Shown here: piece by piece, positions 34,843-63,512 of the stretch
Numbering within the stretch: the first letter of the stretch is position 1
Layout: each line of letters starts with the position of its first letter
Assembly: GCA_036567785.1 (NCBI GenBank)
Contig: DATCTV010000034.1
Coordinates: 102,468-166,467 of the forward strand
Length of the DNA stretch: 64,000 nt
Source of the DNA: Desulfomonilia bacterium
GTDB taxonomy: Bacteria > Desulfobacterota > Desulfomonilia > UBA1062
Direction of reading: 5' to 3'
Notes under the pieces: model-generated
What the model saw: only the letters and a program-made list of their open reading frames with translations
Told to the model about the DNA's origin: nothing
Database searches by the model: none
Position numbers and translations under genes: made by a program

Positions 34843-35450
34843 CTAACTTTAGTGAATATGCCATCAGGCAAAGGTTTGTTGATCTCTGTGTTATCGAACT
34901 CCAGGTATGTCGTTGCTCCCTGAACCTCTATAATCTCGATAGCCGAAATTACGCCCGCATCTTTTGAAAAAGTGATTACAACTTTTTTGATAAAACCTTT
35001 GATTGTTGCATTTTGAGGGGTCAGCTCCACCTTGCCTTCAATAATATCCGCCCTGAAATCCTTGTTATTATTGAATTTGCCGGCAAACCACTCGGTAATC
35101 TGGCCTACAACAATGCGGACGGCTTCGAGTCTTGCGCTGGAATCTTCAACGAAGCTTCCTTCCTTGAAGATGAAGCGTTTTACATTGCCCTTGTCTACAA
35201 GGAGAATGCTCTTTACAGGCTCTGTGTATTCCCACCTGATCGAATCGGGAGATAGGTAATAAAGCCGTCCTTTGCTGATGAGGGGCCTGCTCAGTATCCT
35301 GATGTCCTTTTTCTGTGTGAAGGCTCCTGATATGGACTTTACCTGAGACATGTTCTTTTCGATAGATTCCCAGCTCAGCGTCCACCCGGAAAGGACAAAC
35401 GAAATGAAAAATAGAAACAGGACAAAGGCCTTTGAAGCATGCCTCATCAA
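34839..35450 (-). CDS. LolA-like outer-membrane lipoprotein carrier family protein
   Basis: Signal peptide plus ~180-aa beta-rich body with a LolA/LolB-like pattern. Overlaps the downstream lipoprotein gene by 4 nt. Confidence 0.5.
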   Translation of the reverse strand: MMRHASKAFVLFLFFISFVLSGWTLSWESIEKNMSQVKSISGAFTQKKDIRILSRPLISKGRLYYLSPDSIRWEYTEPVKSILLVDKGNVKRFIFKEGSFVEDSSARLEAVRIVVGQITEWFAGKFNNNKDFRADIIEGKVELTPQNATIKGFIKKVVITFSKDAGVISAIEIIEVQGATTYLEFDNTEINKPLPDGIFTKVR

Positions 35451-40953: not shown

Positions 40954-41672
40954 GACATACTCATACGCTTTCTTGTCGCCTGCGGAAAAACAAGCCTCAT
41001 GACAATCAGGCGAGTAAAGGTTGCAGAGTTCCTCAGGAAATCCACAAAAGGCCTGAAGTGAGAAACCCTCTTTCCGTTTTCAGGGTAGACGACACTGACA
41101 GGAACCTCATAGACCGGTATTTTATGCCAGTTCGCCAATACAAGAATTTCCACCTCAAACTGAAACCTGCTGGCCCTGCTTTTAAGGCTCAATATTTCCT
41201 TTACAGGGTAAATCCTGAACCCGCTCTGTGTATCTGTCAGAACGGGCCCCCCTGAAAGTTTTACCCAGAAGTTTGAAAATTTCCTTCCGAATCTGCTTGT
41301 CCAGGGAATACTTTCATCATCGAACATGTTTTTTCTGGCGCCTATGACAACAGGCCGTGCCCCCTCTTGTATTGATTCCATCAATCCTACGGCGTCACCA
41401 GGCACATGCTGCCCGTCTGCATCTATCGTTACGGCAAAATCGGCAATTTTAGATGCCTCTTTCAGGCCCGAGCGTATAGCCTCACCTTTGCCGATATTTC
41501 TTCCATGCCTGATAACCGTTATATTGTCATACCGTGCTAAAACTTCTGTTATCCCGTCAGTCGATCCGTCATCAACGACTATGACCGGCAGACCGAGTTC
41601 AATGCATCCGTCAAGCACAGAGGCCAGGGTTGCGGCATGGTTGTATACGGGGATGACAAAAGAGAACTGCAT
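40950..41672 (-). CDS. Family 2 glycosyltransferase (polyprenyl-phosphate sugar transferase-like)
   Basis: FSFVIPVYN…VDDGSTDG…(DxD)…RNIGKG: GT2 / GT-A fold motifs, 240 aa. First gene of a seven-gene minus-strand operon. Confidence 0.8.
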   Translation of the reverse strand: MQFSFVIPVYNHAATLASVLDGCIELGLPVIVVDDGSTDGITEVLARYDNITVIRHGRNIGKGEAIRSGLKEASKIADFAVTIDADGQHVPGDAVGLMESIQEGARPVVIGARKNMFDDESIPWTSRFGRKFSNFWVKLSGGPVLTDTQSGFRIYPVKEILSLKSRASRFQFEVEILVLANWHKIPVYEVPVSVVYPENGKRVSHFRPFVDFLRNSATFTRLIVMRLVFPQATRKRMSMS

Positions 41673-41886
41673 CCATCGGGTGTAAGATAAACGGCAGTAT
41701 CATGTCAATGCTCATTAGCTCTTGTGGGACAACAATATCATTGTTCGCCTTATTAATTTTTCCTGCTTACTTTTTATATAAATTAATAATATAATATTAA
41801 TGTACAATTAATACCTTTTCAGCGATCCTGTTTTTTAGGTTCAGTAGTCAGGCCACAGTTTTTAATTTTATCTTTGAGGAGTGAAC

Positions 41887-43809: not shown

Positions 43810-43834
43810 AGAACCTGACGGGAGTTGGCAAACT

Positions 43835-45775: not shown

Positions 45776-45829
45776 GACACACAAAAAATTATAGACAGAC
45801 GATTTCAGTCCAGACTTAGGAGGAAGGGT

Positions 45830-47762: not shown

Positions 47763-48185
47763 ATGAAGAAGTCTCAAATCTGGGCACTTGTAATTATTCT
47801 GCTGGGGGTGGTCGTCATACTTATCCCATGGCAGCTTTTCCCTGTCTGCGGAGTGGGTCGCTATGCACCGCCTGCCGGGGCTATGCCCCGGATGCACGGC
47901 TGTGACGGCACCCTTAAAGCCGCTACTTATCTGGGTATTATAACAATTTGCGCCGGGCTGCTGCCGCTATTTTTCAAACAGCACCTTGCCGGACTTATCT
48001 CGGCAGTTTCAACAGCAGTGATCGGCGTCCTTCTCATACTCTTCCCGACAGTCATAACAGGAGTCTGCAAGGTGCCGACAATGCCATGTGTCTTCGGGAC
48101 AAAACCTGCCCTCATAATGGCGGGTATAGTATTGATACTGGTGGCTGGCTCTTTCGGCATCATGCTGATGAAAAAGAAAAAGTAA
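47763..48185 (+). CDS. Small 4-TM integral membrane protein with conserved cysteines
   Basis: 140 aa with four hydrophobic helices and six Cys (CGVG, HGCDG, CAG, CKVPTMPC). 10 nt after paralog 3. Its stop overlaps the start of the permease gene (TAATG). Confidence 0.45.
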   Translation: MKKSQIWALVIILLGVVVILIPWQLFPVCGVGRYAPPAGAMPRMHGCDGTLKAATYLGIITICAGLLPLFFKQHLAGLISAVSTAVIGVLLILFPTVITGVCKVPTMPCVFGTKPALIMAGIVLILVAGSFGIMLMKKKK

Positions 48186-49393
48186 TGACAACGGCAAGCC
48201 TTGCCCTGGGCAATCTCATCAAACGCCCATGGCGAACCGCCATACTGGCGGTTTGCATCGCATGTCTTGTGGGAATGCAGATGGCGGCCACGATCATTGA
48301 ACGGGCCAGCAGACAGGGTCTCAAACTGGGTCTTGAGCGCCTCGGGGCCGACCTGGTGGCAGTCCCCCGTCAGCTTGACAGCGACCTGGTGCAGGCCTAC
48401 ATGACGGGAAAAGCAGCGGTCTTCTACATGCCGGCCACTATCGAACAGCGTATCCGTAATTTTGATTTCGTCAGACAGACATCCCCTCAGCTTTACATAG
48501 AATCTCTCTCAAATGCGACCTGCTGTTCAACATGGAATGTTTTCCTGATCGGATTTGACCCCAAGACCGACTTTACTGTCCGGCCCTGGCTGAGCAGACA
48601 CCGCGACATACAACTCGGCCCTTCAGACATCCTGGTCGGCGCTGCGCTACAGTCTCCGCCCGGAAAGACCTACAAATTTTATGGTCAGATATTCAATGTC
48701 GCGGGGTCGCTGGATGCAAGCGGTATGGGACTTGACTATTCCGTCTTCATCCCGATCGAGGGAGTCAAACGTATGATAGCCGAATCAGGGATAAAGGCAG
48801 TTAAACGGCTCGATATCGCCCCTGATCAGACATCTGCAATCATGATCAAGCTGAAGCCGGAGATATTCGGGGGGCTCCCTGCATGGAAGGCGGCCTATGA
48901 AATAGAGAGCCGGGTGCCGGAAGTCACTATCATCCAGCCCGCAGACATCACGGTAAAGGTTCAGAAAAATCTGGCCGCGACACTTAAGACCTTGACAATG
49001 GCCAGCTTCGCCATATGGCCCATGACAGTCCTTCTCGTCGGACTCGTGTTCATGATGGCAGTCAGGGAACGCCAGCGCGAGATAGGTCTCATGAGGGCAA
49101 TGGGCAGTACACGTCTGTTTATATTCCGCATGATACAACTTGAAGCATTAATGATCTCGGTTCTGGGAGCAGCTCTCGGACTGATCGTTTCAACGGGAAT
49201 AGTGATCGGTTTCGAGCGTATGATTGCACTTAGACTTGAAATCCCCTTTGCGGTGCCGGGAGTCTTTGAAATTCTTTTCATAGCAGGCCTTTCCTTTGGA
49301 CTCGCAGTTGTCACGGGAGTTCTGGCCGCAATGATCCCGGCACTTAAAGTAAGCGCCATGGAGCCTTACGAGGCCATCAGGAGGGCGGGATGA
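48185..49393 (+). CDS. ABC transporter permease, FtsX/MacB-like (type VII) with large periplasmic domain
   Basis: N-terminal TM, ~220-aa periplasmic domain, then three C-terminal TMs (FtsX-domain pattern …REIGLMRAMGST…). Start reassigned to the ATG at 48185. The track start at 47948 is out of context and overlaps the previous gene. Confidence 0.7.
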   Translation: MTTASLALGNLIKRPWRTAILAVCIACLVGMQMAATIIERASRQGLKLGLERLGADLVAVPRQLDSDLVQAYMTGKAAVFYMPATIEQRIRNFDFVRQTSPQLYIESLSNATCCSTWNVFLIGFDPKTDFTVRPWLSRHRDIQLGPSDILVGAALQSPPGKTYKFYGQIFNVAGSLDASGMGLDYSVFIPIEGVKRMIAESGIKAVKRLDIAPDQTSAIMIKLKPEIFGGLPAWKAAYEIESRVPEVTIIQPADITVKVQKNLAATLKTLTMASFAIWPMTVLLVGLVFMMAVRERQREIGLMRAMGSTRLFIFRMIQLEALMISVLGAALGLIVSTGIVIGFERMIALRLEIPFAVPGVFEILFIAGLSFGLAVVTGVLAAMIPALKVSAMEPYEAIRRAG

Positions 49394-50076
49394 TAATCCT
49401 TAACGGGGTCTCAAAACTCTATGGTTCCGGAGGCGGTGAAATCCGTGCCGTGGATGACGTTTCTCTTGAGGTTAAAGAAGGCGAGTTCCTTGTTCTCATC
49501 GGCCATTCCGGAAGCGGTAAAACCACACTCCTTAACCTCATAGCCGGTATGACGCGTCCGGACACGGGACGAATAGAAATAGCCGGACGGGATATTCTCG
49601 GCATGAGTGATGCCGAAACGGCACATATGAGGGCTTCGGTCATCGGTTTTGTCTTTCAGTTCCAGAGCATGATTTCAACGCTCAATGCACTGGATAATGT
49701 CAGGCTCCCGTCGCTCTTCCGCAGACACAGATCAGAGAAGAAAGAGGCATTCGAAATGCTTGACCGGGTCGGTCTGGCCGGCAGGGAACATGCATATGCA
49801 CACGAGCTTTCACTTGGTCAGCAGCGCCGTGTCGGTATTGCACGGGCCCTGTTCAGCAGGCCTTCGCTGCTGCTCTGCGATGAACCGACAGGAGACCTCG
49901 ACCCTGAAACAGAACTGGCGATCATGGGTTTGATCTCAGGGGCGAACAGGGACGGTGCTACCATTGTCATGGCCACGCATAACCATGACCTCTGCTCTTA
50001 TGCAAACCGTATCCTGTGCATGGACCACGGCCGGATTTCCTCGGTTGAGCCCGGGACAGAACATGCGATTAAATAA
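49390..50076 (+). CDS. ABC transporter ATP-binding protein (LolD/MacB-type)
   Basis: Walker A GHSGSGKTT, signature LSLGQQRRV, Walker B LLLCDEPT, 228 aa. ATGA overlap with the permease gene. Confidence 0.9.
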   Translation: MIILNGVSKLYGSGGGEIRAVDDVSLEVKEGEFLVLIGHSGSGKTTLLNLIAGMTRPDTGRIEIAGRDILGMSDAETAHMRASVIGFVFQFQSMISTLNALDNVRLPSLFRRHRSEKKEAFEMLDRVGLAGREHAYAHELSLGQQRRVGIARALFSRPSLLLCDEPTGDLDPETELAIMGLISGANRDGATIVMATHNHDLCSYANRILCMDHGRISSVEPGTEHAIK

Positions 50077-50227
50077 CAGGTAATCCCTCTTCTGTTTCAG
50101 AAAAACCGCCGGGTACAAAATGATTGAAGAATTATCAGGTACTGCCGATAGATATTTTAGCGCACTTAATTAATAAATATTAAAAACCGGGCGATTCATG
50201 CTCTATTCGCGCAAACAAGGAGCCCTT

Positions 50228-50524
50228 ATGAAAATTAACAAAACGACGGCCGGAGTCAGCATGACCATCGAACTCGAAGGCAGGCTGGACAGCGTAACGG
50301 CGCCGCAGCTCGAAGCCGAATTGAAATGCTCTCTTGACGGCATAACGGAACTGGCGCTTGATTTCTCGGCGCTCGATTATCTTTCATCAGCAGGACTGCG
50401 TGTAATTCTTGCCGCACAGAAGGTCATGAACAAAAAAGGGTGCATGCAGATCAGAAATGTCAACAAAACGATCATGAATGTGTTTGAGATCACGGGGTTT
50501 ACTGATCTCCTGACAATCACCTAG
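50228..50524 (+). CDS. STAS-domain anti-sigma-factor antagonist (SpoIIAA/RsbV-like)
   Basis: 98 aa with the conserved phosphorylatable Ser in the DFSALDYLSSAGLRVIL context. AAGGAG RBS upstream of the ATG at 50228. Confidence 0.8.
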   Translation: MKINKTTAGVSMTIELEGRLDSVTAPQLEAELKCSLDGITELALDFSALDYLSSAGLRVILAAQKVMNKKGCMQIRNVNKTIMNVFEITGFTDLLTIT

Positions 50525-50649
50525 CTGAAGTATCTCGAAAAATGCGCCTGGCAGTATCCGGGCTTATTATAAAACAGATCGTTCCTCTGGACAAATGTTG
50601 AACACAACATGACGCCAATCCTAAAACATCATCTTCAATCAACAGCCTG

Positions 50650-52584
50650 TTAAGTCCCTTCTTTTCGGTATTTCAAGGCAAGCATGGTAATATCATCCGA
50701 TTGTGATGCGCCATTGGTGTGCAGTGTTACAACCGAGCGTATGTAATGGATCATTTCTGTAACATCCTCTTTAGGTGCCTGTTTAAGCGCATTTAAAAGG
50801 CGCTCCTCGCCGTATAGTTCCTGTTCCATGTTTTGCGCTTCCGTCACTCCGTCGGTATAGAGAAAAAGTGTGTCTCCGGCTTTAAGGGTAAGCCGTTCGG
50901 CTTTATAGACAATACCCGGCATGGGGCCCAGCACAAAACCGGGTTTCAGGGTAAGGTATCTTATCCCCTGAGAATCCATGATTACCGGGGCATTATGCCC
51001 GGCATTGGCAAACCGTACGACTCCTGTAACAGTATCAAGAATGGCGCAGAATACTGTAGCGAACATGGTGCTGTCATTGTCCGAGGCAAGAATGTTATTC
51101 ACGCATGAAAGTATCTGATCGGGCTCGCCAAGCCGCTGACCCTCGGATTTAAGGAGGGTCTTTGCCACCATCATGTAAAGGGCCGCCGGCACACCTTTAT
51201 CCGAAACGTCTGCAATTAGGAAGCAGAGATTGGTATCGTCGATGAAAAAGAAATCGTAGAAGTCTCCACCTACTTCCTTGGCGGGATCCATCGAGGCGTA
51301 AATGTCAAATTCGGGACGATCCGGAAATGCCGGGAACAGACGTGGAAGCAGACTGGCCTGTATTTCGGTTGCCATCCTGAGTTCGCTCTGTATACGTTCC
51401 TTTGCCGCAGTGGTTTCGGTCAGGTTCTTTATGTATTCCTTGAGTGACGTTTTCATTACCTGAAAGTCATGCGTGAGCACGCCGACTTCATCCTTAGATC
51501 TGACCGCAGGCAATTCCACATCGAAGTTACCCGAAGCTATATCATCCGTCGCAGCCGCCAGCAGACGGAGAGGTTTTATGATAGCGCTGGCAACATAGAC
51601 GACAGTCGCAACCAGAAGCAGGAGCCCTGCAAAACCCATGGCCGCCATGGTCATGCTCAGACACCTGACATTTTCAAGAAGCTCCGCCTCTGGAAATACA
51701 ACGGCAAGCGTCCAGCCTGTAGAACGGACCGGCGCGTAATACATCCAGCTCCTGAATCCCATAAGGCTGTTGTAGAGAATGAAACCAGACTCTCCGCTGA
51801 CCATCTTTTTGCCGAGTTCGCGCAGTGAAGCATCATTGCGCGCCTCGGCTATGCTGAAGAATGTCTCATTCATGACGGCATCCTTCAAGGGGTGTGCGAG
51901 CAGCATCCCGTTTCGTGAAAGAAGGGCTGCATACCCTGACTTCAGTATCTTGACGGATGAGATCATTTGCGTAAGCGAGTCCAGCGAGACATCCGCCGTC
52001 ACTATTCCTTTGAGTATTCTTGTCCCGTTCTTTTCACCGTAAAATGGAACCGAACATGTTGACATGACGGTATTGCCTGCCCCCTCGTCGAAATACGGCT
52101 CGCTCCATTCGGTTTTGCCCAGTTCCCTCGGGATCTGGTACCAGTCCCAGTATAGATACGGTACGTATTGATATGAGTCTTCCAGGCGGCTGAAGGCAAT
52201 TTTTCCTTTATCCCGGTAGAAGTAGGGAGCAAAAAGACGGATTGAGGGGCTGAAGGCATAGGGCTCAAATGCCACTGTTGAACCGTATATATCCGGATTC
52301 TTTTCAACTGTGGTTCTGATAAGCGAAAGGAGTTCCTTCTCCGTGTACTGACCGGACTCAAGTGAATTAGCCACACCTTCGGTCACTTTGGCAACCCCGA
52401 TAAGCTCGGTTTCAACATGATAGACTAAAGACATGGCAAGGTTGCGCGCATTGGCTTCAAGCTCGTTCTCTAGAACGACGCGGGAGCGGTAATAGTTGTA
52501 GCCGAGAGTTACGGCAAAGATGAGCGTGCTGCATAGCGTGATAACAAGGACAAGCTTGGTGACGATACTATTTTTCCCCGGCAT
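50650..52584 (-). CDS. Sensor PP2C phosphatase: TM, periplasmic Cache-like domain, TM, HAMP, SpoIIE/RsbU PP2C domain
   Basis: Two TMs bracketing a ~280-aa periplasmic domain, a HAMP region (…ATDDIASGNFDVELP…), and C-terminal PP2C motifs (GDFYDF, ADVSDKG, DGVTEA). Confidence 0.8.
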   Translation of the reverse strand: MPGKNSIVTKLVLVITLCSTLIFAVTLGYNYYRSRVVLENELEANARNLAMSLVYHVETELIGVAKVTEGVANSLESGQYTEKELLSLIRTTVEKNPDIYGSTVAFEPYAFSPSIRLFAPYFYRDKGKIAFSRLEDSYQYVPYLYWDWYQIPRELGKTEWSEPYFDEGAGNTVMSTCSVPFYGEKNGTRILKGIVTADVSLDSLTQMISSVKILKSGYAALLSRNGMLLAHPLKDAVMNETFFSIAEARNDASLRELGKKMVSGESGFILYNSLMGFRSWMYYAPVRSTGWTLAVVFPEAELLENVRCLSMTMAAMGFAGLLLLVATVVYVASAIIKPLRLLAAATDDIASGNFDVELPAVRSKDEVGVLTHDFQVMKTSLKEYIKNLTETTAAKERIQSELRMATEIQASLLPRLFPAFPDRPEFDIYASMDPAKEVGGDFYDFFFIDDTNLCFLIADVSDKGVPAALYMMVAKTLLKSEGQRLGEPDQILSCVNNILASDNDSTMFATVFCAILDTVTGVVRFANAGHNAPVIMDSQGIRYLTLKPGFVLGPMPGIVYKAERLTLKAGDTLFLYTDGVTEAQNMEQELYGEERLLNALKQAPKEDVTEMIHYIRSVVTLHTNGASQSDDITMLALKYRKEGT

Positions 52585-53590
52585 CTGACCTCCGGCTGAA
52601 AGCGTCGTAGTAGGGGCAACTCCGGATCAGGCCTGCCTTGAGAAGTGAACTGCAAACCGCCTCATAATCTTTTTCTTTGAGAATGCCAGGAGCACCCAGG
52701 GATGTGCCTGGCATGATCATATCCCGCATCCGGTCAAGCATCCATTTCTGATGAATCCGGTTGGCGGGTATTTTTGCCTCGCGCATGCGTCTGATGACTA
52801 TGTCCAGAGCCTCTTCGGGATGCTCAAAGGCATAGCGCCAGCCATCCAGAGATGCTTTTACAAAGGCCCCGGCCAGTGCAGGGTCATTATGCAGGGTTTT
52901 TTCCATCGCATATATGCCGTCCTCCGGGAAATTCATCCCCAGCTCATTCATGGAAAAAACGTTCAGTTCTTCAGGATCGAGTCCGGAATTGATGATAGTG
53001 TGGTACTCGTTGTACCACATTGCGGATGTGACATCGATCCCGCCTCGAAGGAAGAGGTTCACGGTGGCGTTCTGGGGCACCTCACGTACTTTGATGCCGT
53101 ATTTAATAAACAGGGCATGCGGAGGTATGGACAAGTCTCCTCCCCACAGTCCCACCTTTTTGCCGTTCATATCAGAGACAGTCCGAATGCCGCTTGATTT
53201 TCTTGAAATCAGCATCATGGAAGATCTCTGTATGATCTGAGCCAGATTGACAAGATCTGTACCGGCAGACCGCTGTTGAATTGCAGTCGTAAGCCACAGA
53301 ATAGCGAAGTCGGCAGAACCGTCCTTCAATGCCCTTACAGGGTCATGACCAGGACCTGCATTGAGAATTTTAAGATCTATGCCATAACGGGCATATATCC
53401 CTTTGTCCAACGCGACATAATATCCGGCAAACTGCGCCTGTGGAGTCCAGAGCGGCATGAGGGTAGCCTTTTTCAGAACGGGTTCGGAGACGGCCCATGT
53501 CGAAAGGGGCAACATCAGAAACAACAGCAATGCAAAAATCAATTTCAATAAATTTTGTTCAGTATATTTTTTTTTGTGCATCATAATCAT
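52568..53590 (-). CDS. Periplasmic substrate-binding protein, NMT1/SsuA/TauA-like
   Basis: Signal peptide followed by a type-2 periplasmic-binding fold typical of nitrate/sulfonate/bicarbonate ABC SBPs. Overlaps the downstream phosphatase gene by 17 nt. Confidence 0.65.
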   Translation of the reverse strand: MIMMHKKKYTEQNLLKLIFALLLFLMLPLSTWAVSEPVLKKATLMPLWTPQAQFAGYYVALDKGIYARYGIDLKILNAGPGHDPVRALKDGSADFAILWLTTAIQQRSAGTDLVNLAQIIQRSSMMLISRKSSGIRTVSDMNGKKVGLWGGDLSIPPHALFIKYGIKVREVPQNATVNLFLRGGIDVTSAMWYNEYHTIINSGLDPEELNVFSMNELGMNFPEDGIYAMEKTLHNDPALAGAFVKASLDGWRYAFEHPEEALDIVIRRMREAKIPANRIHQKWMLDRMRDMIMPGTSLGAPGILKEKDYEAVCSSLLKAGLIRSCPYYDAFSRRSDAGEK

Positions 53591-54778: not shown

Positions 54779-55936
54779 ATGTCCAGGGTTTCGATAATTG
54801 AAGTTCGCAGGTATGACAGCGGTCTTATCAAGCAAGCCATGTTTAAGGCCCTTGATGAGATCGGATTCGACCTTTCCAGCCTGAAGGGTAAAAGGGTAGC
54901 TGTAAAACCCAACCTTCTGTCTGCAAGCAAGCCTGAGCAGGCGATTATAACCCATCCTGAATTTTTCCGGGCGGCTGTACAGATAATCAAAGGTGCAGGC
55001 GCGTTCCCGGTCCTCATCGAATCCCCGGCAATCCATTCGCTTTCAAGGGTATTTCGCGTTTCTGGTTATGACAGGGTCATCGAAGAAGAAGGCATCGAGG
55101 TGGACCTCGAGCAGGCAGGCATGACAATCACCAACAATAACGGCCGCAGATACAAGAATTTCGAGATCATGAAAAGCGTGACCGGTGCGGATTTCATCTT
55201 CAACCTGCCCAAGTTCAAGACACACGGCCTCACATACATCACCGGCGCACAAAAAAATCTTTTCGGGCTGATACCCGGTATGGCCAAAACCCAGTGGCAT
55301 TTCAAGGCCAATGAAAGGGAAATATTCTGCGAGTTTCTGGCGGATTATTTCGAGGCGGTGAGCATGCTTTTCAAATCTCCCAAGGGTATCATACATGTGA
55401 TGGATGCGATCACAGGCATGGAGGGAAACGGTCCCGGCTCGGGAGGAAAACCCAGGGAAATAGGCGCCGTTATCGTATCGGAAGACGCCATTGCCGCCGA
55501 TTTCATTGCAACAAGCCTTGTCGGATTCGATCCGAGGTTTGTTAAAACCATGTCCTTTGCCTCAGAGCGCGGCCTCGGCAAAAAAGGGTTTAATGAAATA
55601 GATTTCGACCGGAACGCCTTCGACAGGCTGAAGCTCGACAAGTTCGAGCCGGCGCCAATGCCCTTCAACGTCAGGCTGGAAAAAATTAAATGGCTGAACA
55701 ATCTGCTTAAGAGGCTTATGGTTGAAAGGCCGGTGCCGATAGAGGGCAAATGCACCCTGTGTTATCAGTGCAGGCAGATCTGCCCGGCAAAGGCCATTGA
55801 TAAGGGTGACACGGTCGCCATCTTCAACTATGAAAAATGCATACGCTGCTTCTGCTGCATAGAAGTCTGCCCCGAAGCGGCGATTAGAATCAAGGGTAAT
55901 TTCCTGAGCAGAATATTCAACCCGAAAAAAGGTTAA
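54779..55936 (+). CDS. DUF362-domain protein with C-terminal 2x[4Fe-4S] ferredoxin domain
   Basis: C-terminus CTLCYQCRQICP…CIRCFCCIEVCP gives two CxxCxxCxxxCP motifs. The N-terminal ~300 aa match the DUF362 pattern as I recall it. Confidence 0.6.
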   Translation: MSRVSIIEVRRYDSGLIKQAMFKALDEIGFDLSSLKGKRVAVKPNLLSASKPEQAIITHPEFFRAAVQIIKGAGAFPVLIESPAIHSLSRVFRVSGYDRVIEEEGIEVDLEQAGMTITNNNGRRYKNFEIMKSVTGADFIFNLPKFKTHGLTYITGAQKNLFGLIPGMAKTQWHFKANEREIFCEFLADYFEAVSMLFKSPKGIIHVMDAITGMEGNGPGSGGKPREIGAVIVSEDAIAADFIATSLVGFDPRFVKTMSFASERGLGKKGFNEIDFDRNAFDRLKLDKFEPAPMPFNVRLEKIKWLNNLLKRLMVERPVPIEGKCTLCYQCRQICPAKAIDKGDTVAIFNYEKCIRCFCCIEVCPEAAIRIKGNFLSRIFNPKKG

Positions 55937-56018
55937 ACAATTGACTTTTTAGATATATGCATATTTACTGATTTATCAGTGCGCTATACTCTCTTGAAAT
56001 ACTGAAACGGAGGTTACA

Positions 56019-57482
56019 ATGAAGCCAGGCAGACTGGAGTTCCTGAGTGAATCCGAAATTAAAAAGATCGATGCGCTATCCTTGGACATCCTCGAAAACA
56101 CCGGCATCAAGGTCGAACTTAAAAAACTGAGAGGAATCCTTCGCGATATAGGATGCACGGTTGATGAAACTAAAAAAATCGTTAAATTCCGTCCAGATAT
56201 CGTTCAGGCATTTGTTAAGAAGGCACCAAGGGAGTATATCCTTTGCGGAGCGGATCCGTCAAAACGCTGGCCCGTCAATCCGGACACAAGAGTTTTCGGG
56301 GGACTGGGCACAGCCGTGAACATGTACGATCTTTACTCGGGGGAATACCGTCAGGCGACCCTGCAGGATGTCGTCAACCACATCATCCTTTTCGACGGCC
56401 TTGAGCATATCGTCTCCAGCCAGATGGACATCTGGCCGGGTGACATCCCGATGCAGACAATCCACGTTGAGGCCATGCGGGCCTGGGCCAGGCACAGCAC
56501 CAAGTCATTCGGAATGGGTGCCTACGGCGTCATGCCCACGCAAGACATGATGGAAATGACGTCATTGATAATGGGTGGAAGGGAAAACTTTAAAAAACAG
56601 CACCCCTTCATCGCCATCGTGAGCATTCAAAGCCCTCTTTCCTCGGTACAGATACAGCTCGAGGGGCTTATGGTACTTGCGGAATGGGGTCAGCCCGCTC
56701 TCATGTCGCCGGAGGCCATGGCCGGCACAACAGCTCCTGTAACGATTGCGGGGCTTCTCGCCCAGCACAACGCGGAAATACTTGCGTATATCGTTATGGC
56801 CCAGGCAGTCAATCCAGGTACACCGGTCATGTACGGAACGGTTTCGACCATTGCCGAGATGCGGCGCGGAACCGTAGCATTAGGCGCGATTGAAATGGGC
56901 CTCATCAGCGCCGCCTCTGCACAGATGGCACATTATTACGGAGTTCCCTGCAGGGCCGCAGCGGGCGGCACCGAGGCCAAGACCTTGGACATGCAGTGCG
57001 GCATAGAGCGCGAGCGCTCGATGATGCTTGCTGCCCTCGGCGGTGCAAACTATATCACCAGTGTCGGCACCATCGAATCCACCACGGCAGGCGCGCATGA
57101 ACTGGCGGTAATCGACAACGAAATCATCGGACAGATCGAGAGGGCGCTGCGAGGCATCGAGGTGGGCGACATCACCATGGCGGCCGAGGTCATCAAGGCC
57201 GTGGGCCCTGACGGAAACTACCTCATGCAAGACCATACACAGAAAAACTTCAGGCGCGAACATTATATTCCGAAACTGGCGGATAGAGACAAACGCGATG
57301 TATGGGAACGAGGCGGAAGCAGAGAAATGATTAATAACGCCAGAGAAGAAGCCAAAAAGATCATCGCCACACATAAAGAGCGGCAGCTGGACCCGAAGCT
57401 TTTAATGGAGATTGACGCCTATGTGGATTCTGTGAAGGCGAGAAGCCTGGAAGATTTTTATGCGGCTGAATGGGAAAGCTGA
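56019..57482 (+). CDS. MttB-superfamily methyltransferase, non-pyrrolysine type (glycine betaine / quaternary amine:corrinoid methyltransferase-like)
   Basis: 487-aa TIM-barrel MttB-family pattern. Continuous ORF with no in-frame TAG, so it is the non-Pyl class (MtgB/MtpB/MtcB-like). GGAGG RBS. Confidence 0.8.
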   Translation: MKPGRLEFLSESEIKKIDALSLDILENTGIKVELKKLRGILRDIGCTVDETKKIVKFRPDIVQAFVKKAPREYILCGADPSKRWPVNPDTRVFGGLGTAVNMYDLYSGEYRQATLQDVVNHIILFDGLEHIVSSQMDIWPGDIPMQTIHVEAMRAWARHSTKSFGMGAYGVMPTQDMMEMTSLIMGGRENFKKQHPFIAIVSIQSPLSSVQIQLEGLMVLAEWGQPALMSPEAMAGTTAPVTIAGLLAQHNAEILAYIVMAQAVNPGTPVMYGTVSTIAEMRRGTVALGAIEMGLISAASAQMAHYYGVPCRAAAGGTEAKTLDMQCGIERERSMMLAALGGANYITSVGTIESTTAGAHELAVIDNEIIGQIERALRGIEVGDITMAAEVIKAVGPDGNYLMQDHTQKNFRREHYIPKLADRDKRDVWERGGSREMINNAREEAKKIIATHKERQLDPKLLMEIDAYVDSVKARSLEDFYAAEWES

Positions 57483-57502
57483 ATAGATAAGGGAGGCATG
57501 TC

Positions 57503-58144
57503 ATGGGAGAGACTACGTTAAAAGAACTTGAAGATGCGATCGTACAGATGGATGCCGATATCACGGAGGGGCTTGCCATAAAGCTTCTCGATTCAGGCAC
57601 AGAAGCTCAGGTAATATTAAAAGAGGCGCTTCTTCCGGCACTTGACCGGGTTGGAACACTCTTCAGGGACGGGGATTATTTTCTCCCGGACGTGCTCATG
57701 TGCGTAAAGGCCTATGACAATTCGTTCAAGATAATCCTGCCAAAGCTCAAGGAAGGCGATTATACCTCGCGCGGCAGGGTGATTCTGGGAACCGTGGAAG
57801 GCGATATCCACGAGATCGGCAAGAATATTCTTTTCGCGCTTCTTGAGGGTAACGGCTTCGATGTGCTGGATATGGGCGTAAATGTCAAGGCGGACGACTT
57901 TCTTGCAAAGGCAAAGGAGTGGTCTCCGGACATCATCGGCATGTCGTCGCTGCTTTCCACGACCATGCCCGCAATGAAACAGGTCATCGACACCTTCACA
58001 AAAGAAGGGCTCAGGAATAACTATAAATTCATCATCGGCGGTGCGCCGGTAAGCCAGCGGTTTGCCGATGAGATAGGTGCAGACGGTTATGGGGAAGATG
58101 CACAATCCGGAGTGGAGCTGGTAAAGCGGCTGCTCGCATCCTGA
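57503..58144 (+). CDS. Corrinoid (cobalamin-binding) protein of methyltransferase systems
   Basis: N-terminal helical cap plus B12-binding Rossmann domain with the DxHxxG motif (GDIHEIGKN). 213 aa. 20 nt after the mttB-like gene. Confidence 0.85.
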   Translation: MGETTLKELEDAIVQMDADITEGLAIKLLDSGTEAQVILKEALLPALDRVGTLFRDGDYFLPDVLMCVKAYDNSFKIILPKLKEGDYTSRGRVILGTVEGDIHEIGKNILFALLEGNGFDVLDMGVNVKADDFLAKAKEWSPDIIGMSSLLSTTMPAMKQVIDTFTKEGLRNNYKFIIGGAPVSQRFADEIGADGYGEDAQSGVELVKRLLAS

Positions 58145-58164
58145 CAAAAAGTCCGGGAGAAGAC

Positions 58165-59511
58165 ATGACCGACAGGCATGCAGTTCAAGAGTTCATGCCG
58201 GTAACTCTGAAGGAAATCATCCTCTACAATCTGGCAGGCTTTGCCTTCAACGTGTACGATACCGTGCTTTACGCATGGCTTCCGTACTTCTATACTCCGC
58301 CGAAAGATTCTTCGGCGATTCATTATATACCGTTGGCCGCCATAGGGATAATACTGGCAGGCGGCAGGATCCTCGATGCCTTCAATGACCCGCTTGTGGG
58401 TTACTGGAGTGATCACACCAAATCCCGCTGGGGGAGAAGAAAGCCTTACATCTTCATTGCAAACCCCTTTCTCTTTCTCACTTTCATCCTGGTATGGATG
58501 CCCCCAGTGCGAGGAGAAAGCATAACGAATGTAATCTTTCTAGCTGCAGTTCTTTTCTTTTACTACTGGGCCTATACGGGGGTGCTCATTCCCTGGTTTG
58601 CCGTTCTGCCCGAAATAAGCAGGAAGAATGAAGACAGGGTGAAGATTGCATCGATAGGTGTCGCCATCGGCGTAATCGGGGCACTTCTGGGCGGTGGCCT
58701 CTCCGGTCCGCTCTTCTCCAAATACGGGCCATTCATGATGGGGCTTTTACTCGGCATTCCGGCATTCATAGCCGGCGAACTCACCCTATTCGGCATCAAG
58801 GAGCGCCATTCACCGCCCCCCGAAGAGGACATGCCCGGTTTTTTCAAGGTCATGAAAGAGGTTTTCGGAGATAAGCAGTTCCTTTCCTTCGCCGGAATGA
58901 TAATGATGGTTCAGCTTACCTATCAGCTAATGCTTATGAATGTGCCCTATCTGACTACCCTTATCCTCGGCAAAAAGGAAGCGGATGCGTCTCTGATCAT
59001 GGCTGAGGTGATCATAATGATCGCGGCTTCGTCACCGCTGTGGTATCTCCTTCTTAAAAAGTATTCGAAGAAAAATATCTTCCGCATTATCATAATCCTT
59101 ATGATCTTGGGCTTTTCACTTAGTTTCTTCATCGGCAGGCTGCCCTTCTTCTCGCCACTGGTCCAGGCCATGCTGATATTCCCCATTGCCGCAATTCCCA
59201 TAGGCGGCATGTTTACGGCTTCGCTCGGCATTATTGCAGATCTCACGGATTACGATGAACTCAAGAGCGGCAGGCGCAGGGAGGCTATATATTACGGCCT
59301 CTACGGGATAGTCAGAAAGACCGGCTGGGCGCTATGCTCTCTTATCCTTGTGGGGATATTTTCCTTTTTCGGCTACAGCAAAGAGAATCCTCTAGGCATA
59401 CGTGTGGTCTGGATCGTCTGCTCGATTTCCTGCCTCATAGGGCTTCTCGCATTCATCCCTTACAAGATAGGCGACAGCAAGGAAGAGACAAAACGCATCA
59501 TGGGGCTGTGA
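58165..59511 (+). CDS. MFS transporter (GPH/cation-symporter-like)
   Basis: 448 aa, 12 predicted TMs, MFS loop motif region (…GYWSDHTKSRWGRRKP…). Confidence 0.75.
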   Translation: MTDRHAVQEFMPVTLKEIILYNLAGFAFNVYDTVLYAWLPYFYTPPKDSSAIHYIPLAAIGIILAGGRILDAFNDPLVGYWSDHTKSRWGRRKPYIFIANPFLFLTFILVWMPPVRGESITNVIFLAAVLFFYYWAYTGVLIPWFAVLPEISRKNEDRVKIASIGVAIGVIGALLGGGLSGPLFSKYGPFMMGLLLGIPAFIAGELTLFGIKERHSPPPEEDMPGFFKVMKEVFGDKQFLSFAGMIMMVQLTYQLMLMNVPYLTTLILGKKEADASLIMAEVIIMIAASSPLWYLLLKKYSKKNIFRIIIILMILGFSLSFFIGRLPFFSPLVQAMLIFPIAAIPIGGMFTASLGIIADLTDYDELKSGRRREAIYYGLYGIVRKTGWALCSLILVGIFSFFGYSKENPLGIRVVWIVCSISCLIGLLAFIPYKIGDSKEETKRIMGL

Positions 59512-59544
59512 TTCAGGATTTTTGGGGCCCTGTTGAAATTGCGG

Positions 59545-60249
59545 TCATGAAAGATTTTGCAGGTTGAATTTTTTCCCCACATGCGAAAGGTGTGCGATCA
59601 TGGCCTTTCGTGCCCCATCGGGATCATGCGCCTTCAGCGCCGCCACAATCTCCCTGTGGTCATCAACAGCCTGTCTGCGGACTTCCATGTCGTCGCCGGT
59701 TCTCCGCCTGCTGTAGATGCTGATCCTGTCTATTGAATGCATGAACGCCTGAATGATCCTGTTTCCTGCAACTTCCATAATACGCCTGTGCAGATCAATA
59801 TCATATGCCATGAATGTTTCCGGGTCATCGATTACCTTGAGGGCCTCGTCAAGGCACTTCTCGATTTCATGTATTTCGTCGTCGGAGATATTCTCCGCCG
59901 CAAGGGCCACCATCCCGGCTTCCAGTATCGTTCTTGCCTGAAGGAGATTCGCGTAGGTGGAATCGTCGAGTGCGAATTCGATGTCAAGGTGCTCTACAAG
60001 CTTTTCGGGAGTAAGAGACGAAACAAACGTCCCCGAGCCCTGGCGGTTTTCTATTATGTTCATGAGCTTAAGGGCATTGAGGGCCTCTCTCAGCGAGGGC
60101 CTGCTGACGTTCAGAATCGATGACAGTTCCCTTTCCGGAGGGAGTTTGTCACCTCTCTTGAGGCCCTTTTCCCTTATAAGCGAAAGGATTCTCTGCGCAA
60201 GATTATCAGGCTGGATTTCTTTAAAAGCGGTACTTTTTTTTACTTTCAC
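59545..60249 (-). CDS. GntR-family transcriptional regulator with FCD (FadR C-terminal) domain
   Basis: N-terminal wHTH (…GDKLPPERELSSILNVSRPSLREAL…) and a C-terminal all-helical FCD domain. Confidence 0.85.
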   Translation of the reverse strand: MKVKKSTAFKEIQPDNLAQRILSLIREKGLKRGDKLPPERELSSILNVSRPSLREALNALKLMNIIENRQGSGTFVSSLTPEKLVEHLDIEFALDDSTYANLLQARTILEAGMVALAAENISDDEIHEIEKCLDEALKVIDDPETFMAYDIDLHRRIMEVAGNRIIQAFMHSIDRISIYSRRRTGDDMEVRRQAVDDHREIVAALKAHDPDGARKAMIAHLSHVGKKFNLQNLS

Positions 60250-60270
60250 AAGGCTTCTCCGGTCCGCTGA

Positions 60271-61404
60271 CTATCGTACACTGATTATATCTGCCGGAAG
60301 AGTTGTTATCTTATGAGGTACTGTTTCCGTTATGATATAAGTTTCTTCATCTCCGATTTCCACCCCTTCGGCATAATTGTAATACAGCTCGATATTGATC
60401 ACCATATCGGGATTCAATTCAAAATCGCTTCCTCCATAGAGCCAGGACTCTTCGGTCATAAGGCCTATAGAATGCCCCGCTGTGACGATTAGCGGAATCA
60501 TGCCTTCACGCTCATAGATTTTGACGGCCATTTCATAGATTTGTCCGGACGTTGTTCCGGGGACAAGGGATCTGCCTACCTCATCCACGATAGCGTTCAT
60601 TTTTTTATTTAGCGCTCTCAGTTCTTCGGGCACATCTCCTGTAAAGGCATGCCTCCTTATATCAGAGAGATAGCCGTAATAGCTTGCACCAAGGTCAATG
60701 GCCACCAGCTGACCTTCTCCGAGAGTTTCATTTATGGACACTTCCGGATTCGATGTGCCGAATGAAATCGTGACATGGCCGATGCCTGTCGCCCCGTTTT
60801 TGATCATGCGCCATTTGGCTTCCTGAATTAGTTCAGGCCTTGTTATGCCCGGCCTGACAACTTCAGCAATCAGTTCCTGCATGGCCTTTTCCGCTATCTG
60901 GGTCGATTTTATAATCATATCAAGTTCATAGACCGATTTTATCAGTCTGAGTGAATCCATGACATCATCGACATATATGAACCTAACGTCTGATGCTGTT
61001 TGAACAATCAAGTCCTTCAGATAAACAGGCATCCCTGACTCGATGCCGAGAGTCTTTCCTGAAAGGTTTTTTGAGGAAAAAAAATTATTAAGGGTTGAAT
61101 GGGCGCCGGCCCTGTCGGCCCAGACCTCGATATGATCGCATCCGAACTCAACATCGCCCAGCACCGCACCTATCCAGCAGCCGAGCGTTACTCTGCCGTC
61201 AGGTTCAATGAAAGAAAGGAACGGTAACTGGTTTCGAAGCGCAAACAAAATGGGATTACCGCTTCCGGGCAGACACGGATATCCTGTCGTGTACATAACA
61301 TTTTCAGGAGTAGTCAGCAGAACAGCGTCGATTCCCTTTTCATTCATCGTTTTCAGCAGGGAGTCCTTGTAAAATCCTATCGGCTCGAATCTTGCGCCTT
61401 TCAC
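60271..61404 (-). CDS. M24-family metallohydrolase (Xaa-Pro aminopeptidase / creatinase / ectoine-hydrolase-like)
   Basis: Creatinase-N-like domain plus pita-bread fold with a complete metal-ligand set (D…D in VAIDLGASYYGYLSD, H in GHSIG, E in NIELYY, E in EIGDEE). Confidence 0.75.
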   Translation of the reverse strand: MKGARFEPIGFYKDSLLKTMNEKGIDAVLLTTPENVMYTTGYPCLPGSGNPILFALRNQLPFLSFIEPDGRVTLGCWIGAVLGDVEFGCDHIEVWADRAGAHSTLNNFFSSKNLSGKTLGIESGMPVYLKDLIVQTASDVRFIYVDDVMDSLRLIKSVYELDMIIKSTQIAEKAMQELIAEVVRPGITRPELIQEAKWRMIKNGATGIGHVTISFGTSNPEVSINETLGEGQLVAIDLGASYYGYLSDIRRHAFTGDVPEELRALNKKMNAIVDEVGRSLVPGTTSGQIYEMAVKIYEREGMIPLIVTAGHSIGLMTEESWLYGGSDFELNPDMVINIELYYNYAEGVEIGDEETYIITETVPHKITTLPADIISVR

Positions 61405-61715: not shown

Positions 61716-63512
61716 ATGAAGATAATGCGATATTTGCTTTTCGTTCTGTTTATTCTGACGGCAATGTTATTCGCTGCTTGCGGTGGGGCCAATCACAATG
61801 AAGAGCTTGCAAAAGACGAATCGTTTTATGATCCCGGCGCATCAGTGGAAGCAGTTGATTTCAGTGAAGCGCAGACAATAACGTTATATGTCTGGAAACA
61901 GACGGGATATAATAAATACGGGTTTGTGAAGGTGTCAAATGGCGATTTCCTTGCCCCTGGAAAGCATAAATTCGGTGTTTCTGTAACACAGAGGATTGTC
62001 AACGGTGAAGTCGCCCCCGAGCGCGTTTTCATAGGCGACGGCGGAATTGATTATCAGGTGGAGGCCCTGCCTGATAAGGATTCCGGTTATTATGTCTGTG
62101 ATTACAAGCTTGCCCCCGCCGATTATCTCCTCACTTGCCCTATACTGATTCAGGTCATTTATGAAGACGCCCTTGCATCAAAGGAAAAATTTGTAGTCAG
62201 GACCGAAGATGGAATGGGAGCGCCTTTTGACATGCTTGCAGATAAGGGCCTGGGTATATCGCTGAGCAAATACATGCTGAAACAGGCCATCAAGGTTGTC
62301 AATCCCATGATCGCCCAGCAGATAAAAGGTGTGTCGATTCAGGATCTGAGACCTGTAGTAGGCGGGAATGGAATCATCCATGTAGACCTCGGAAGCATAG
62401 GTTGTGATGTCGCCATAACCGACATGAACAAAAAAACAAGGGGCCTGTTCATCGGGCTTGAGAATATAACCGGCGGCAGCGGCAGCGGTAATATTTTAAA
62501 TTCCGTAATCAGCGCAATCCTCAAAGGGATTTTAGGAAAGGGGATCAATATTAACGGCATCTCTGTAGGTGCCCTTGGATTTAATATACCGGACATGATT
62601 TCAGGCCTTGCCGGACCGGCCGATCCTGACAGCGAAGACCCTCTTGCTGGGATCCTTACAGGACTTAAGCTTGACTCAGTCATGTTCCTGAATCTGAAGG
62701 GACAGCCGGACTCAACCACGGAAAACAATGCCTTACTCAGCGGCAGCCTTTATTCCGCTCCTGCCGGAACAGTTAAAAAAGACAAAGACGGCAATTACAT
62801 ATGGCCGTCAGTTACTGAAGACACAACGAATACTCTTAAAATGGATTTGACAAGACTTCAGGGTGACAATACGGACATAGGGCTTGCCCTTTCAGACTAC
62901 AATCTTAATCAGGTGCTGTCTGCCGTGATGAACGGATTTTCCATCGAAATAAAAGATATCCAGAAACTTACCGATTTCTTTTCACCGGATGACCCAAACA
63001 ATTCGATGACACTGGACGTTAAAATAAACCCTGGCGGCATTGCCCTTGACCTGGCGAACCAGAGGGTGGCGGTAAACGATGTTCGCCTGACAGTATACGA
63101 GGTTATGCCCAATGGGACATCATGGGCAAGGACGGAACTATCTCTTGATGTGACAATAGCATTCGAGGCCGGTTTCCATTCCGACAGCAAGACATCATAT
63201 CTCGATCTGATGCTTTCTCCCCAATACGACAAATGCCACATTCACATCATGAAAGACAACATGGACATGAGCATGTTTGACCACAGTTCATATTTCCCGC
63301 TTATTATTTCGGGATTTACCGGAGGGAAAGCCGATCTCAGCCTTAGTCTGGCGCTTTCGGATTTCGGCATCCTGCCAAGGCCGGGCATTGATCCAGGAGA
63401 AGTGGAATACGACAACTCGGGAAACTGCTATATGAAAATGGCGGTAGGCGATCTCGACGCCTCAAAACTTCCTGTTGACGGGCTCTGTTTTATAAGTACT
63501 GCAGCCGGCTGA
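61716..63512 (+). CDS. Large secreted lipoprotein of unknown function
   Basis: Signal peptide with lipobox FAAC followed by GG. 598 aa, Gly-rich central region (GGSGSGN). No recognisable catalytic motif. GAGGAG RBS. Confidence 0.5.
   Translation: MKIMRYLLFVLFILTAMLFAACGGANHNEELAKDESFYDPGASVEAVDFSEAQTITLYVWKQTGYNKYGFVKVSNGDFLAPGKHKFGVSVTQRIVNGEVAPERVFIGDGGIDYQVEALPDKDSGYYVCDYKLAPADYLLTCPILIQVIYEDALASKEKFVVRTEDGMGAPFDMLADKGLGISLSKYMLKQAIKVVNPMIAQQIKGVSIQDLRPVVGGNGIIHVDLGSIGCDVAITDMNKKTRGLFIGLENITGGSGSGNILNSVISAILKGILGKGININGISVGALGFNIPDMISGLAGPADPDSEDPLAGILTGLKLDSVMFLNLKGQPDSTTENNALLSGSLYSAPAGTVKKDKDGNYIWPSVTEDTTNTLKMDLTRLQGDNTDIGLALSDYNLNQVLSAVMNGFSIEIKDIQKLTDFFSPDDPNNSMTLDVKINPGGIALDLANQRVAVNDVRLTVYEVMPNGTSWARTELSLDVTIAFEAGFHSDSKTSYLDLMLSPQYDKCHIHIMKDNMDMSMFDHSSYFPLIISGFTGGKADLSLSLALSDFGILPRPGIDPGEVEYDNSGNCYMKMAVGDLDASKLPVDGLCFISTAAG

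Follow-up and report, generated by a model that had tools for sequence, protein, structure and literature searches.

Layout of the locus

The 64,000-nucleotide stretch of Desulfomonilia contig DATCTV010000034.1 analysed here (positions 102,468 to 166,467; hereafter the ‘window’, in whose numbering coordinates are given unless another locus is named) contains a gene for a member of the MttB methyltransferase superfamily, followed on the same strand by genes for a corrinoid protein and a transporter. The original prediction, made from the sequence alone, joined these three to a converging GntR-FCD regulator and an M24 hydrolase, and read all five as a single locus for the demethylation of quaternary amines. 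The five open reading frames (ORFs) are all present where that prediction placed them, and the strength of their family matches argues that they are not chance:

55937-56018, + strand: upstream intergenic region of 82 nt, its ribosome-binding site, GGAGG, standing 6 nt ahead of the MttB ATG
56019-57482, + strand: MttB-family methyltransferase (the first methyltransferase, MT1), 487 amino acids (aa); PF06253, 334 bits, E=1e-99
57503-58144, + strand: corrinoid (B12-binding) protein, 213 aa; PF02607 and PF02310
58165-59511, + strand: MFS_2/GPH-family transporter, 448 aa; PF13347, E=2.5e-64
59545-60249, − strand: GntR/FCD regulator, 234 aa; PF00392 (62 bits) and PF07729 (96.5 bits)
60271-61404, − strand: M24 hydrolase with a Creatinase_N domain, 377 aa; PF00557 and PF01321

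The genes are tightly packed: 20 nt separate MttB from the corrinoid gene and a further 20 nt the corrinoid gene from that of the transporter, with 33 nt between the convergent stops of the transporter and GntR genes, and 21 nt between GntR and M24. A candidate promoter (TTTACT...TATACT), read from the sequence and unproven, lies within the upstream intergenic region; a consensus scan of 53.5-61.8 kb for sigma-70 promoters and terminators returned nothing beyond shuffled background. Neither the window nor 11 related loci yielded a riboswitch or leader RNA (S-adenosylmethionine, B12) at Rfam gathering thresholds, and the window contains no tRNA.

The MttB homolog matches the MTTB profile across residues 5-473, far above the cut-off of 25 bits, and its gene runs without an internal stop to a terminal TGA. 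The 213-aa protein has the architecture of a methylotrophic corrinoid protein—a B12-binding_2 cap followed by a B12-binding domain—together with all three cobalamin motifs (DxHxxG at 101-106, SxL at 148-150 and GG at 179-180); the models nearest to it are those for MtgC and the methylamine corrinoid proteins, with all scores falling under the respective cut-offs (MtgC and MtbC equivalogs). The transporter is a distant GPH member, presumed from its position and family to import the methyl donor; its nearest solved relatives are the MFSD2A lysophosphatidylcholine symporters (70 bits, partial) and MelB (46 bits), a similarity that is at most a weak hint. The 234-aa regulator combines the N-terminal winged helix-turn-helix and C-terminal FCD domain of the FadR/FCD branch of the GntR family.

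Among the window ORFs scanned (at least 150 aa, encoding housekeeping and envelope functions) there is no pterin-binding methyltransferase, RamA-type activase or pyl gene, in line with the original remark that MtgA-like and RamA genes are missing from the window. Nor do these ORFs include a second methyltransferase (MT2) of family PF00809, PF01208 or PF02574, and the locus thus falls short of the complete set of MT1, corrinoid protein, MT2 and activase.

The MttB homolog and its clade

The best match to the MttB homolog in the Protein Data Bank (PDB) is MtgB of Desulfitobacterium hafniense (264 bits, 34 % identity; PDB 2QNE, 9YCE), followed by the pyrrolysine (Pyl)-containing MttB of Methanosarcina barkeri (194 bits, 30 % identity; PDB 7XCL), with which it shares superfamily and TIM-barrel fold family. 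Against TIGR02369, the equivalog model for trimethylamine (TMA) methyltransferases, it scores 415 bits and does not reach the cut-off of 525; the pyrrolysine of 7XCL aligns with its Gly317. None of the NCBIfam hits to the protein is specific to a subfamily. Taken together, the uninterrupted reading frame, the glycine at the Pyl site and the sub-cut-off TIGR02369 score identify the protein as a non-pyrrolysine member of the MttB superfamily. The absence of an in-frame amber (UAG) codon and the placement in the non-Pyl clade, both proposed originally, are therefore borne out; glycine betaine, offered at the same time as one possible substrate, fares less well.

We mapped the substrate pocket by aligning 56 clade members to MtgB and Pyl-MttB in MAFFT. 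In MtgB, mutagenesis and a ligand-bound structure have defined a glycine-betaine site whose cation-pi contacts come from Y97 and F356 and whose carboxylate contacts come from R312 and H348 (Picking et al. 2026, PMC13080624). The MtgB positions Y97, R312, Pyl site, H348 and F356 become L96, R312, G317, a one-residue deletion and T355 in the window protein, and this signature—Leu (or Ile), Arg, a small residue at the Pyl site, a deletion, and Thr (or Ser)—is common to all 56 aligned clade members. With only R312 kept of the four validated residues the protein does not qualify as an MtgB, and because the other three are absent glycine betaine is disfavoured as its substrate. The arginine itself is conserved in MtcB, MtpB, MthB and MtyB whereas the aromatic pair is not (PMC13080624). 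The Eubacterium limosum enzymes MtpB, MtcB, MtyB and MthB (proline betaine, carnitine, gamma-butyrobetaine, phosphocholine), compared here by their published residues, are likewise non-Pyl, act on acidic quaternary amines and share with the window MT1 the conserved Arg and a variable aromatic pair; retention of R312 thus gives the window protein the acid-binding Arg typical of enzymes for such substrates. The clade pocket is unlike both of the characterised references compared (MtgB and Pyl-MttB). Judged by this pocket, the window homolog acts on neither TMA nor glycine betaine, and MT1 is best placed in a new, uncharacterised MttB subfamily.

That subfamily is large. At E<=1e-30 the search returned 898 homologs, the best 120 of which are 60-93 % identical to the window protein and nearly all 487 aa long; any name given to one of the best 120 is the automatic annotation ‘trimethylamine methyltransferase’. 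Scanning a single genome for each species yielded 55 loci, all in metagenome-assembled genomes (MAGs), and a metagenome scan contributed 80 further loci, for a total of ~135, spread over Desulfobacterota, Spirochaetota, SAR324, Chloroflexota and Poribacteria. The taxa represented among the MAG loci are Desulfomonilia, other Thermodesulfobacteriota, Desulfobacterales, Zymogenaceae, Spirochaetota/Leptospirales, SAR324, Dehalococcoidia, Anaerolineae and Poribacteria; nearest to the window is CAZEMO01 (94 %), followed by a MAG of Desulfomonilia (91 %). Neighbouring genes were counted by tblastn with defined seed proteins across 46 non-redundant MAG lineages at >=56 % identity; many counts are restricted by contig ends, and only assessable loci (here labelled L) enter the denominators. 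Another version of this census, in which neighbouring ORFs were called de novo and grouped by single linkage, produced antisense-ORF artefacts and merged clusters and was replaced by the seed-based version.

Conservation of the operon

The order MttB, corrinoid protein, MFS transporter, together with its tight spacing, is kept in orthologs of 56-95 % identity, so that the corrinoid protein and transporter said originally to follow MttB are parts of an operon conserved down to ~56 %. The corrinoid gene adjoins MttB in 30 of the 43 MAG loci in which this could be assessed, and 27 of 40 have an orthologous MFS gene (59-95 % identity) within the operon. Among close relatives, conservation is higher for MttB (93-94 %) and the MFS protein (93-95 %) than for M24 (81-84 %), which argues against decay; the idea of the window operon as a decaying remnant was rejected on this ground and because all three assessable ORFs are intact in those relatives.

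Some relatives depart from this arrangement. In one sub-branch (L005, L029, L030, L032, L033, L038, L062, L079, L084, L089 and L093) a B12-binding radical-SAM gene lies directly upstream of MttB and the corrinoid gene, with no MFS gene. The nearest models for the radical-SAM enzyme of the sub-branch are BchE, HpnJ and P-methyltransferase, each scoring under its cut-off.

The closest MAG also encodes a second, 62 % identical paralog of the clade (L063, equal to L040; CAZEMO010000004.1, 78454-99917), 76 kb from the first. To one side of it lie divergent genes for a methionine gamma-lyase (MGL)-like enzyme of the pyridoxal-phosphate (PLP) type, a second MFS_2 transporter and a GFO/IDH/MocA oxidoreductase; to the other, in the same direction, a BNR-repeat (sialidase-like) protein and ATC_hydrolase, with no adjacent corrinoid gene. 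The MGL-like neighbour of this paralog suggests that the organism probably keeps part of its partner set outside the window.

Partner enzymes in related loci

Moving downstream of the transporter, 18 MAG loci retain the MttB, corrinoid and MFS genes and enough sequence beyond them to be assessed. PF02574, taken as the mark of a ‘split methionine synthase’ and absent from the window, is co-operonic in 13 of these, and a further one has PF01208 (URO-D) in the same slot; among six assessable loci of the metagenome set there are two PF02574 genes and one URO-D. In L009 (91 %) the three operon genes are followed by unrelated genes; L001 (84 %) carries PF02574 in that slot. In the tree the window lineage and L009 are sister to L001, nested among branches that carry PF02574 or URO-D, which suggests that the MT2 gene was lost from the locus or moved elsewhere. 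We infer the same fate, loss or relocation, for the partner genes of the window lineage as a set (MT2 and PLP).

The PF02574 partners are ~290 aa long and mutually 63-69 % identical, with C208 and C273-C274 invariant, the latter pair within a ‘GGCCG’ motif; these cysteines correspond to the zinc triad of homocysteine methyltransferases. The homocysteine module of Thermotoga maritima MetH is the best-scoring structure (147 bits), with full-length cobalamin-dependent methionine synthases at 119-128 bits, well ahead of BHMT (69 bits) and the S-methylmethionine-dependent MmuM/YagD type (45 bits). These scores, with which NCBIfam agrees, point to stand-alone MetH-type homocysteine modules. The URO-D family includes the methyl-corrinoid:thiol methyltransferases of methanogens, and its occurrence (L017/L064, L070) in the slot otherwise held by PF02574 means that two unrelated Zn-thiol-alkylating families share one position. 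A PF02965-like ORF (MetH activation domain, weak hit) beside PF02574 in L001 was set aside, being found at no other locus and having no NCBIfam hit.

The URO-D variant of the operon, at 6388-14749 of L064 (the same as L017) and also in L070, reads MGL-like PLP enzyme, 660-aa ATPase, MttB, corrinoid protein, MFS transporter and URO-D (PF01208). Its Hydantoinase_A-family (ASKHA-type) ATPase could, from family membership, be an unconventional corrinoid activase; as a candidate activase for the clade it was dropped, since it occurs upstream of MttB in a single lineage only.

The other recurrent partner is an MGL-like PLP gene (PF01053), found within 3.5 kb of MttB in 22 of the 46 MAG lineages and adjacent in 27 of 50 metagenome orthogroup loci (21 of the 31 whose contigs reach far enough upstream). 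Methionine gamma-lyases take the first 14 places among its PDB matches (296-326 bits), ahead of cystathionine gamma-lyase-like proteins (275), O-succinylhomoserine sulfhydrylase (260) and O-acetylhomoserine sulfhydrylase (233); since it lies under all NCBIfam equivalog cut-offs, we call it ‘MGL-like’ only. Genes for an IlvD/Edd-family dehydratase and a thiamine-pyrophosphate (TPP) enzyme adjoin the PLP gene in L003 (4938-9810) and in L026, upstream of MttB, a placement compatible with the consumption of 2-oxobutyrate released by gamma-elimination, isoleucine synthesis being one such fate.

Pterin-binding and activase genes are absent from these surroundings. The neighbours inspected were those that had been seeded, those with JGI Pfam annotation, or those among 130 further ORFs scanned within ~2.5 kb; near the ~135 related loci none of them is a PF00809 protein (in the 130-ORF scan, none among the families present at least twice), and none is a RamA-like activase. 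The Pfam scan of the 130 found no family recurring in more than eight loci, and spot checks returned regulators, an M20 peptidase and similar proteins, with no pterin methyltransferase or activase among them.

Predicted pathway and its alternatives

On balance, and by a modest margin, we judge it probable that the operon at 56019-59511 encodes the front half—import, MT1 and corrinoid carrier—of a corrinoid-dependent methyl transfer whose acceptor across the clade is a thiol. The GPH-type transporter would import a methylated onium compound carrying an acidic group, and the MttB-family MT1 would move one methyl to the Co(I) of the adjacent corrinoid protein. The resulting methyl-Co(III) protein would then be discharged by an MT2 encoded outside the window, predicted to be a Zn-dependent thiol methyltransferase: a stand-alone MetH-type homocysteine module yielding methionine. 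The whole would resemble a MetH system in which an MttB-type donor module takes the place of the folate module, and the MGL-like PLP enzyme would work on the methionine/homocysteine side. From the family content of the neighbourhoods, a Zn thiol methyltransferase is the most likely MT2 for the clade, which probably does not use a pterin-binding tetrahydrofolate (THF) methyltransferase; the course of the methyl group from donor to acceptor, the identity of the substrate as an acidic onium compound and the specificity of the transporter are predictions.

A precedent for such a system exists and counts in support of the thiol-acceptor reading. MtgBCDE of Ruegeria pomeroyi and Phaeobacter inhibens is a modular glycine-betaine demethylase/split methionine synthase (Mausz et al. 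2025, PMC12478193), in which, as here, a PF06253 donor, a free corrinoid protein and a PF02574 module tie onium demethylation to methionine synthesis. Its pterin module MtgD is essential, however, and mtgE is usually not co-located (PMC12478193), whereas the relatives described here place MttB, corrinoid protein, MFS transporter and PF02574 in one operon with no pterin module nearby, and the window itself is without PF02574; no MtgD-type (PF00809) module occurs among the scanned window ORFs and none recurs among the neighbours of related loci. The MT1 pockets also differ, and MtgBCDE belongs to aerobic marine bacteria while the organisms here are uncultured and mostly of anaerobic lineages. 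The glycine-betaine pathway of Methanolobus vulcani (MtgB-MtgC with an MT2) likewise has a thiol as final methyl acceptor, a parallel to the URO-D genes of L017/L064 and L070; that pathway is archaeal, with coenzyme M as acceptor and RamA present (PMC12478193), whereas most relatives here use PF02574 and not URO-D.

Saying this, a number of points weigh against the thiol-acceptor reading. The window lacks an MT2, a PLP partner and an activase, and its acceptor is deduced only from relatives of <=84 % identity; a thiol methyltransferase gene after the MFS gene is missing from four MAG lineages (the window lineage, L009, L041 and L045), many orthologs have no adjacent corrinoid gene, and the neighbouring PF02574 protein could act on its own as an MmuM-like enzyme. 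All loci examined are from MAGs or from contigs of metagenomes, two sets that may partly overlap so that their counts are not fully independent, and the tree is a neighbour-joining one with two reference enzymes only (MtgB and Pyl-MttB). For every member of the clade, function is predicted from sequence comparison.

The foremost rival is classical quaternary-amine methylotrophy, in which methyl groups pass to THF via an MtgA/MeTr-type pterin methyltransferase that, like a RamA-type activase, is encoded elsewhere in the genome, as in Desulfitobacterium and Eubacterium; an MtgA-like enzyme was also the partner that the original prediction listed as missing. All characterised bacterial non-Pyl MttB systems do use a THF-dependent MT2 (PMC12155760; PMC13080624), the corrinoid protein of the window is nearest to MtgC-type models, MT2 and activase genes are often unlinked, and in the window lineage the locus is devoid of a thiol methyltransferase. 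The characterised anaerobic systems are uniform in this respect, those of D. hafniense and E. limosum all combining THF methyltransferases with RamA/RamQ-type activases (MtqC/MthC with a THF methyltransferase and RamQ in E. limosum). The D. hafniense MtgB/MtgC/MtgA system shares with the window a non-Pyl MT1 with its Arg312 and an adjacent corrinoid protein of B12-binding_2/B12-binding architecture, but the window MT1 differs from MtgB at three pocket positions (Leu, a deletion and Thr for Y97, H348 and F356), the transporter is a GPH-type MFS protein, no gene for the pterin protein MtgA is present and the relatives carry thiol methyltransferases. What turns us from the THF route is the absence of any pterin-binding gene among the inspected neighbours of ~135 loci, the occupation of the MT2 slot by PF02574 or URO-D in most assessable loci and the presence of a PLP partner belonging to Cys/Met metabolism. 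We accordingly rate THF as an unlikely acceptor, if one deserving serious attention, and the assumption of an MtgA-type partner sits poorly with the thiol methyltransferases and MGL-like enzyme of the relatives; the acceptor wiring of the clade appears, from its gene content, to differ from the anaerobic paradigm.

A second rival concerns the donor: rather than an N-methyl compound it could be a sulfonium, either S-methylmethionine, giving methionine that the MGL-like enzyme then cleaves, or dimethylsulfoniopropionate, which would make this the first sulfonium-specific MttB-family enzyme. The three recurrent partners all touch on methionine chemistry (the PF02574 homocysteine module, the MGL-like lyase and an amino-acid permease in L001), the TPP-enzyme and IlvD-family genes flanking the PLP gene in L003 and L026 could use 2-oxobutyrate, and the cation-pi aromatic pair of MtgB is gone while its carboxylate-binding Arg is retained. 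Literature searches found nothing linking MttB with methionine gamma-lyase, S-methylmethionine or this clade. Yet this is a matter of association only: known MttB substrates are all N-methyl compounds, the PF02574 partner resembles MetH modules and not the S-methylmethionine-dependent MmuM, and the transporter is not of the MmuP type. A sulfonium donor is in our estimation improbable.

The thiol-acceptor reading can also be extended, at some distance from the data, to a catalytic homocysteine/methionine ‘shuttle’ combining a folate-independent, B12-dependent ‘onium compound:homocysteine’ methyltransferase with the MGL-like enzyme. Methyl groups would pass from the imported donor to Co and on to homocysteine, giving methionine, from which the PLP enzyme, by gamma-replacement with sulfide, would regenerate homocysteine and free methanethiol; alternatively, gamma-elimination would supply 2-oxobutyrate. 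We put this forward as a decidedly long shot.

The M24-GntR pair

Turning to the minus-strand genes, the original prediction had the regulator and hydrolase complete the locus and took the M24 pairing as a hint of proline betaine, ectoine-derived or creatine-derived amines. Their conservation does not uphold this. The two genes stand beside MttB only in the window and in L006, L007, L008 and L010, all of >=93 % MttB identity and amounting to one of 46 lineages; the pair is already missing at L009 (91 %), and neither gene adjoins MttB at any metagenome locus, two loci of >=95 % identity ending before that position. Orthologs of M24 (~59 % identity) sit in other clusters. In L065 a 941-kb contig carries both this ortholog and that of MttB, ~460 kb apart, and the M24 gene there sits among genes for GFO/IDH/MocA, a second M24 protein, BKACE, SDR, GntR-FCD and an aldolase; an aldolase gene also adjoins M24 in L066. 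Since adjacency is limited to near-identical genomes and orthologs occur elsewhere, the pair gives no demonstrable clue to the substrate of MttB.

As for the hydrolase itself, its best PDB matches are prolidases, and on alignment with Pyrococcus furiosus prolidase (1PV9) it keeps the Asp, Asp, His, Glu and Glu positions, which we take to be the prolidase metal ligands; in creatinase, the metal ligands of the M24 fold have been lost. The two DoeA models give 69 bits (cut-off 575) and 22 bits (cut-off 613), and PepQ and other NCBIfam models are also far below their cut-offs. With DoeA scores so low and the prolidase-aligned residues present, the candidates ectoine hydrolase (DoeA) and creatinase were both discarded; the protein appears to be an M24B-type, Xaa-Pro peptidase-like metallohydrolase.

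It would still be conceivable that the five genes form one functional locus, with GntR-FCD regulating the operon and M24 processing a substrate or product derived from proline betaine, ectoine or creatine. Adjacency is kept in five assemblies of one lineage, MthK offers a precedent for an accessory enzyme that defines the true substrate of an MttB protein, and GFO/IDH/MocA and BKACE genes are found both near the M24 ortholog of L065 and near some MttB orthologs (L003, L063), a loose association. Set against this are the restriction to one of 46 lineages, with loss in a relative as close as L009, the separation of M24 from MttB orthologs within the same genomes, the organisation of M24 and GntR as a unit of their own on the opposite, convergent strand, and the metal-dependent prolidase character of M24, far under the DoeA cut-offs. 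We find a five-gene locus highly implausible; judging by these neighbourhoods, M24-GntR is an independent neighbouring operon and not a conserved part of the MttB system.

Beyond M24 and divergent from it lies one further gene:

61716-63512, + strand: 598-aa protein with an N-terminal hydrophobic segment and no Pfam hit

It also stands beside M24 in L006-L008 and L010 (74-89 % identity), and the contig of a 77 % identical M24 ortholog (P0130) keeps M24 and GntR together with the 598-aa protein.

Other features of the window

The operon is preceded on its own strand by a gene that starts 14 nt past ychF and ends 82 nt short of MttB:

54779-55936, + strand: DUF362 protein with a C-terminal 2x[4Fe-4S] ferredoxin domain; PF04015 and Fer4

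Its upstream position is kept only in relatives of >=93 % identity, with remoter DUF362 copies 2-10 kb from MttB in L043 and L048. Any tie to the MttB system, possibly as electron donor, is speculative, and a role as substitute for RamA, which we considered, is unsupported given that its upstream conservation is confined to those close relatives.

Further upstream, three tandem Ldi-family paralogs (linalool dehydratase/isomerase, PF18566; 640-646 aa each) occupy 41881-47752 (+), followed at 47948-50076 (+) by a MacB-type FtsX permease and an ABC ATPase. L008 runs from its GT2/MMPL genes straight to the STAS gene without this block, which consequently looks like an insertion in the lineage of the window, L006 and L007. 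At 50198-53590 there is a partner-switching-type module: the plus strand encodes a STAS protein resembling anti-sigma antagonists, and the minus strand a phosphatase of Cache/HAMP/SpoIIE (PP2C) type with an overlapping gene for an NMT1/THI5-like binding protein. Genes of the NMT1 type, at 25-29 % identity, lie a few kb from MttB orthologs in L028, L034, L045, L085 and L099.

The minus strand at 34189-41672 carries an envelope/lipid-type cluster (LolA-like protein, SDR, polysaccharide deacetylase, lipid-A-type acyltransferase, a 1037-aa MMPL-methyltransferase fusion and GT2). A similar cluster (LolA, deacetylase, radical SAM-SPASM, GT2, SecDF/MMPL) is found directly downstream of MttB and the corrinoid gene in the B12-radical-SAM sub-branch; these LolA/GT2/MMPL-type clusters, in L005, L030, L032, L033, L038 and L062, are only 28-38 % identical to that of the window.

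Significance

The MttB superfamily is very large, only about six of its substrates are known, and for bacteria every tracing of the methyl group has ended at tetrahydrofolate. Within it, the window holds one intact representative of a widespread, unstudied clade with methionine-centred partners, the key ones lying outside the window. The label ‘trimethylamine methyltransferase’ attached to genes of this clade is, on the evidence of the pocket, wrong, and substrate guesses based on adjacency, of which M24 is a case in point, need synteny checks. Were the predicted coupling true, it would provide a folate-independent link between the turnover of methylated osmolytes and methionine/methanethiol metabolism in anoxic habitats, would extend the MtgBCDE concept from aerobic marine bacteria to anaerobes, and would offer a concrete gene set for expression and assay. 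The ‘shuttle’, if it operates, would give sulfidic sediments a route, defined at the level of genes, by which methyl groups of the osmolyte type end up in methanethiol or methionine.

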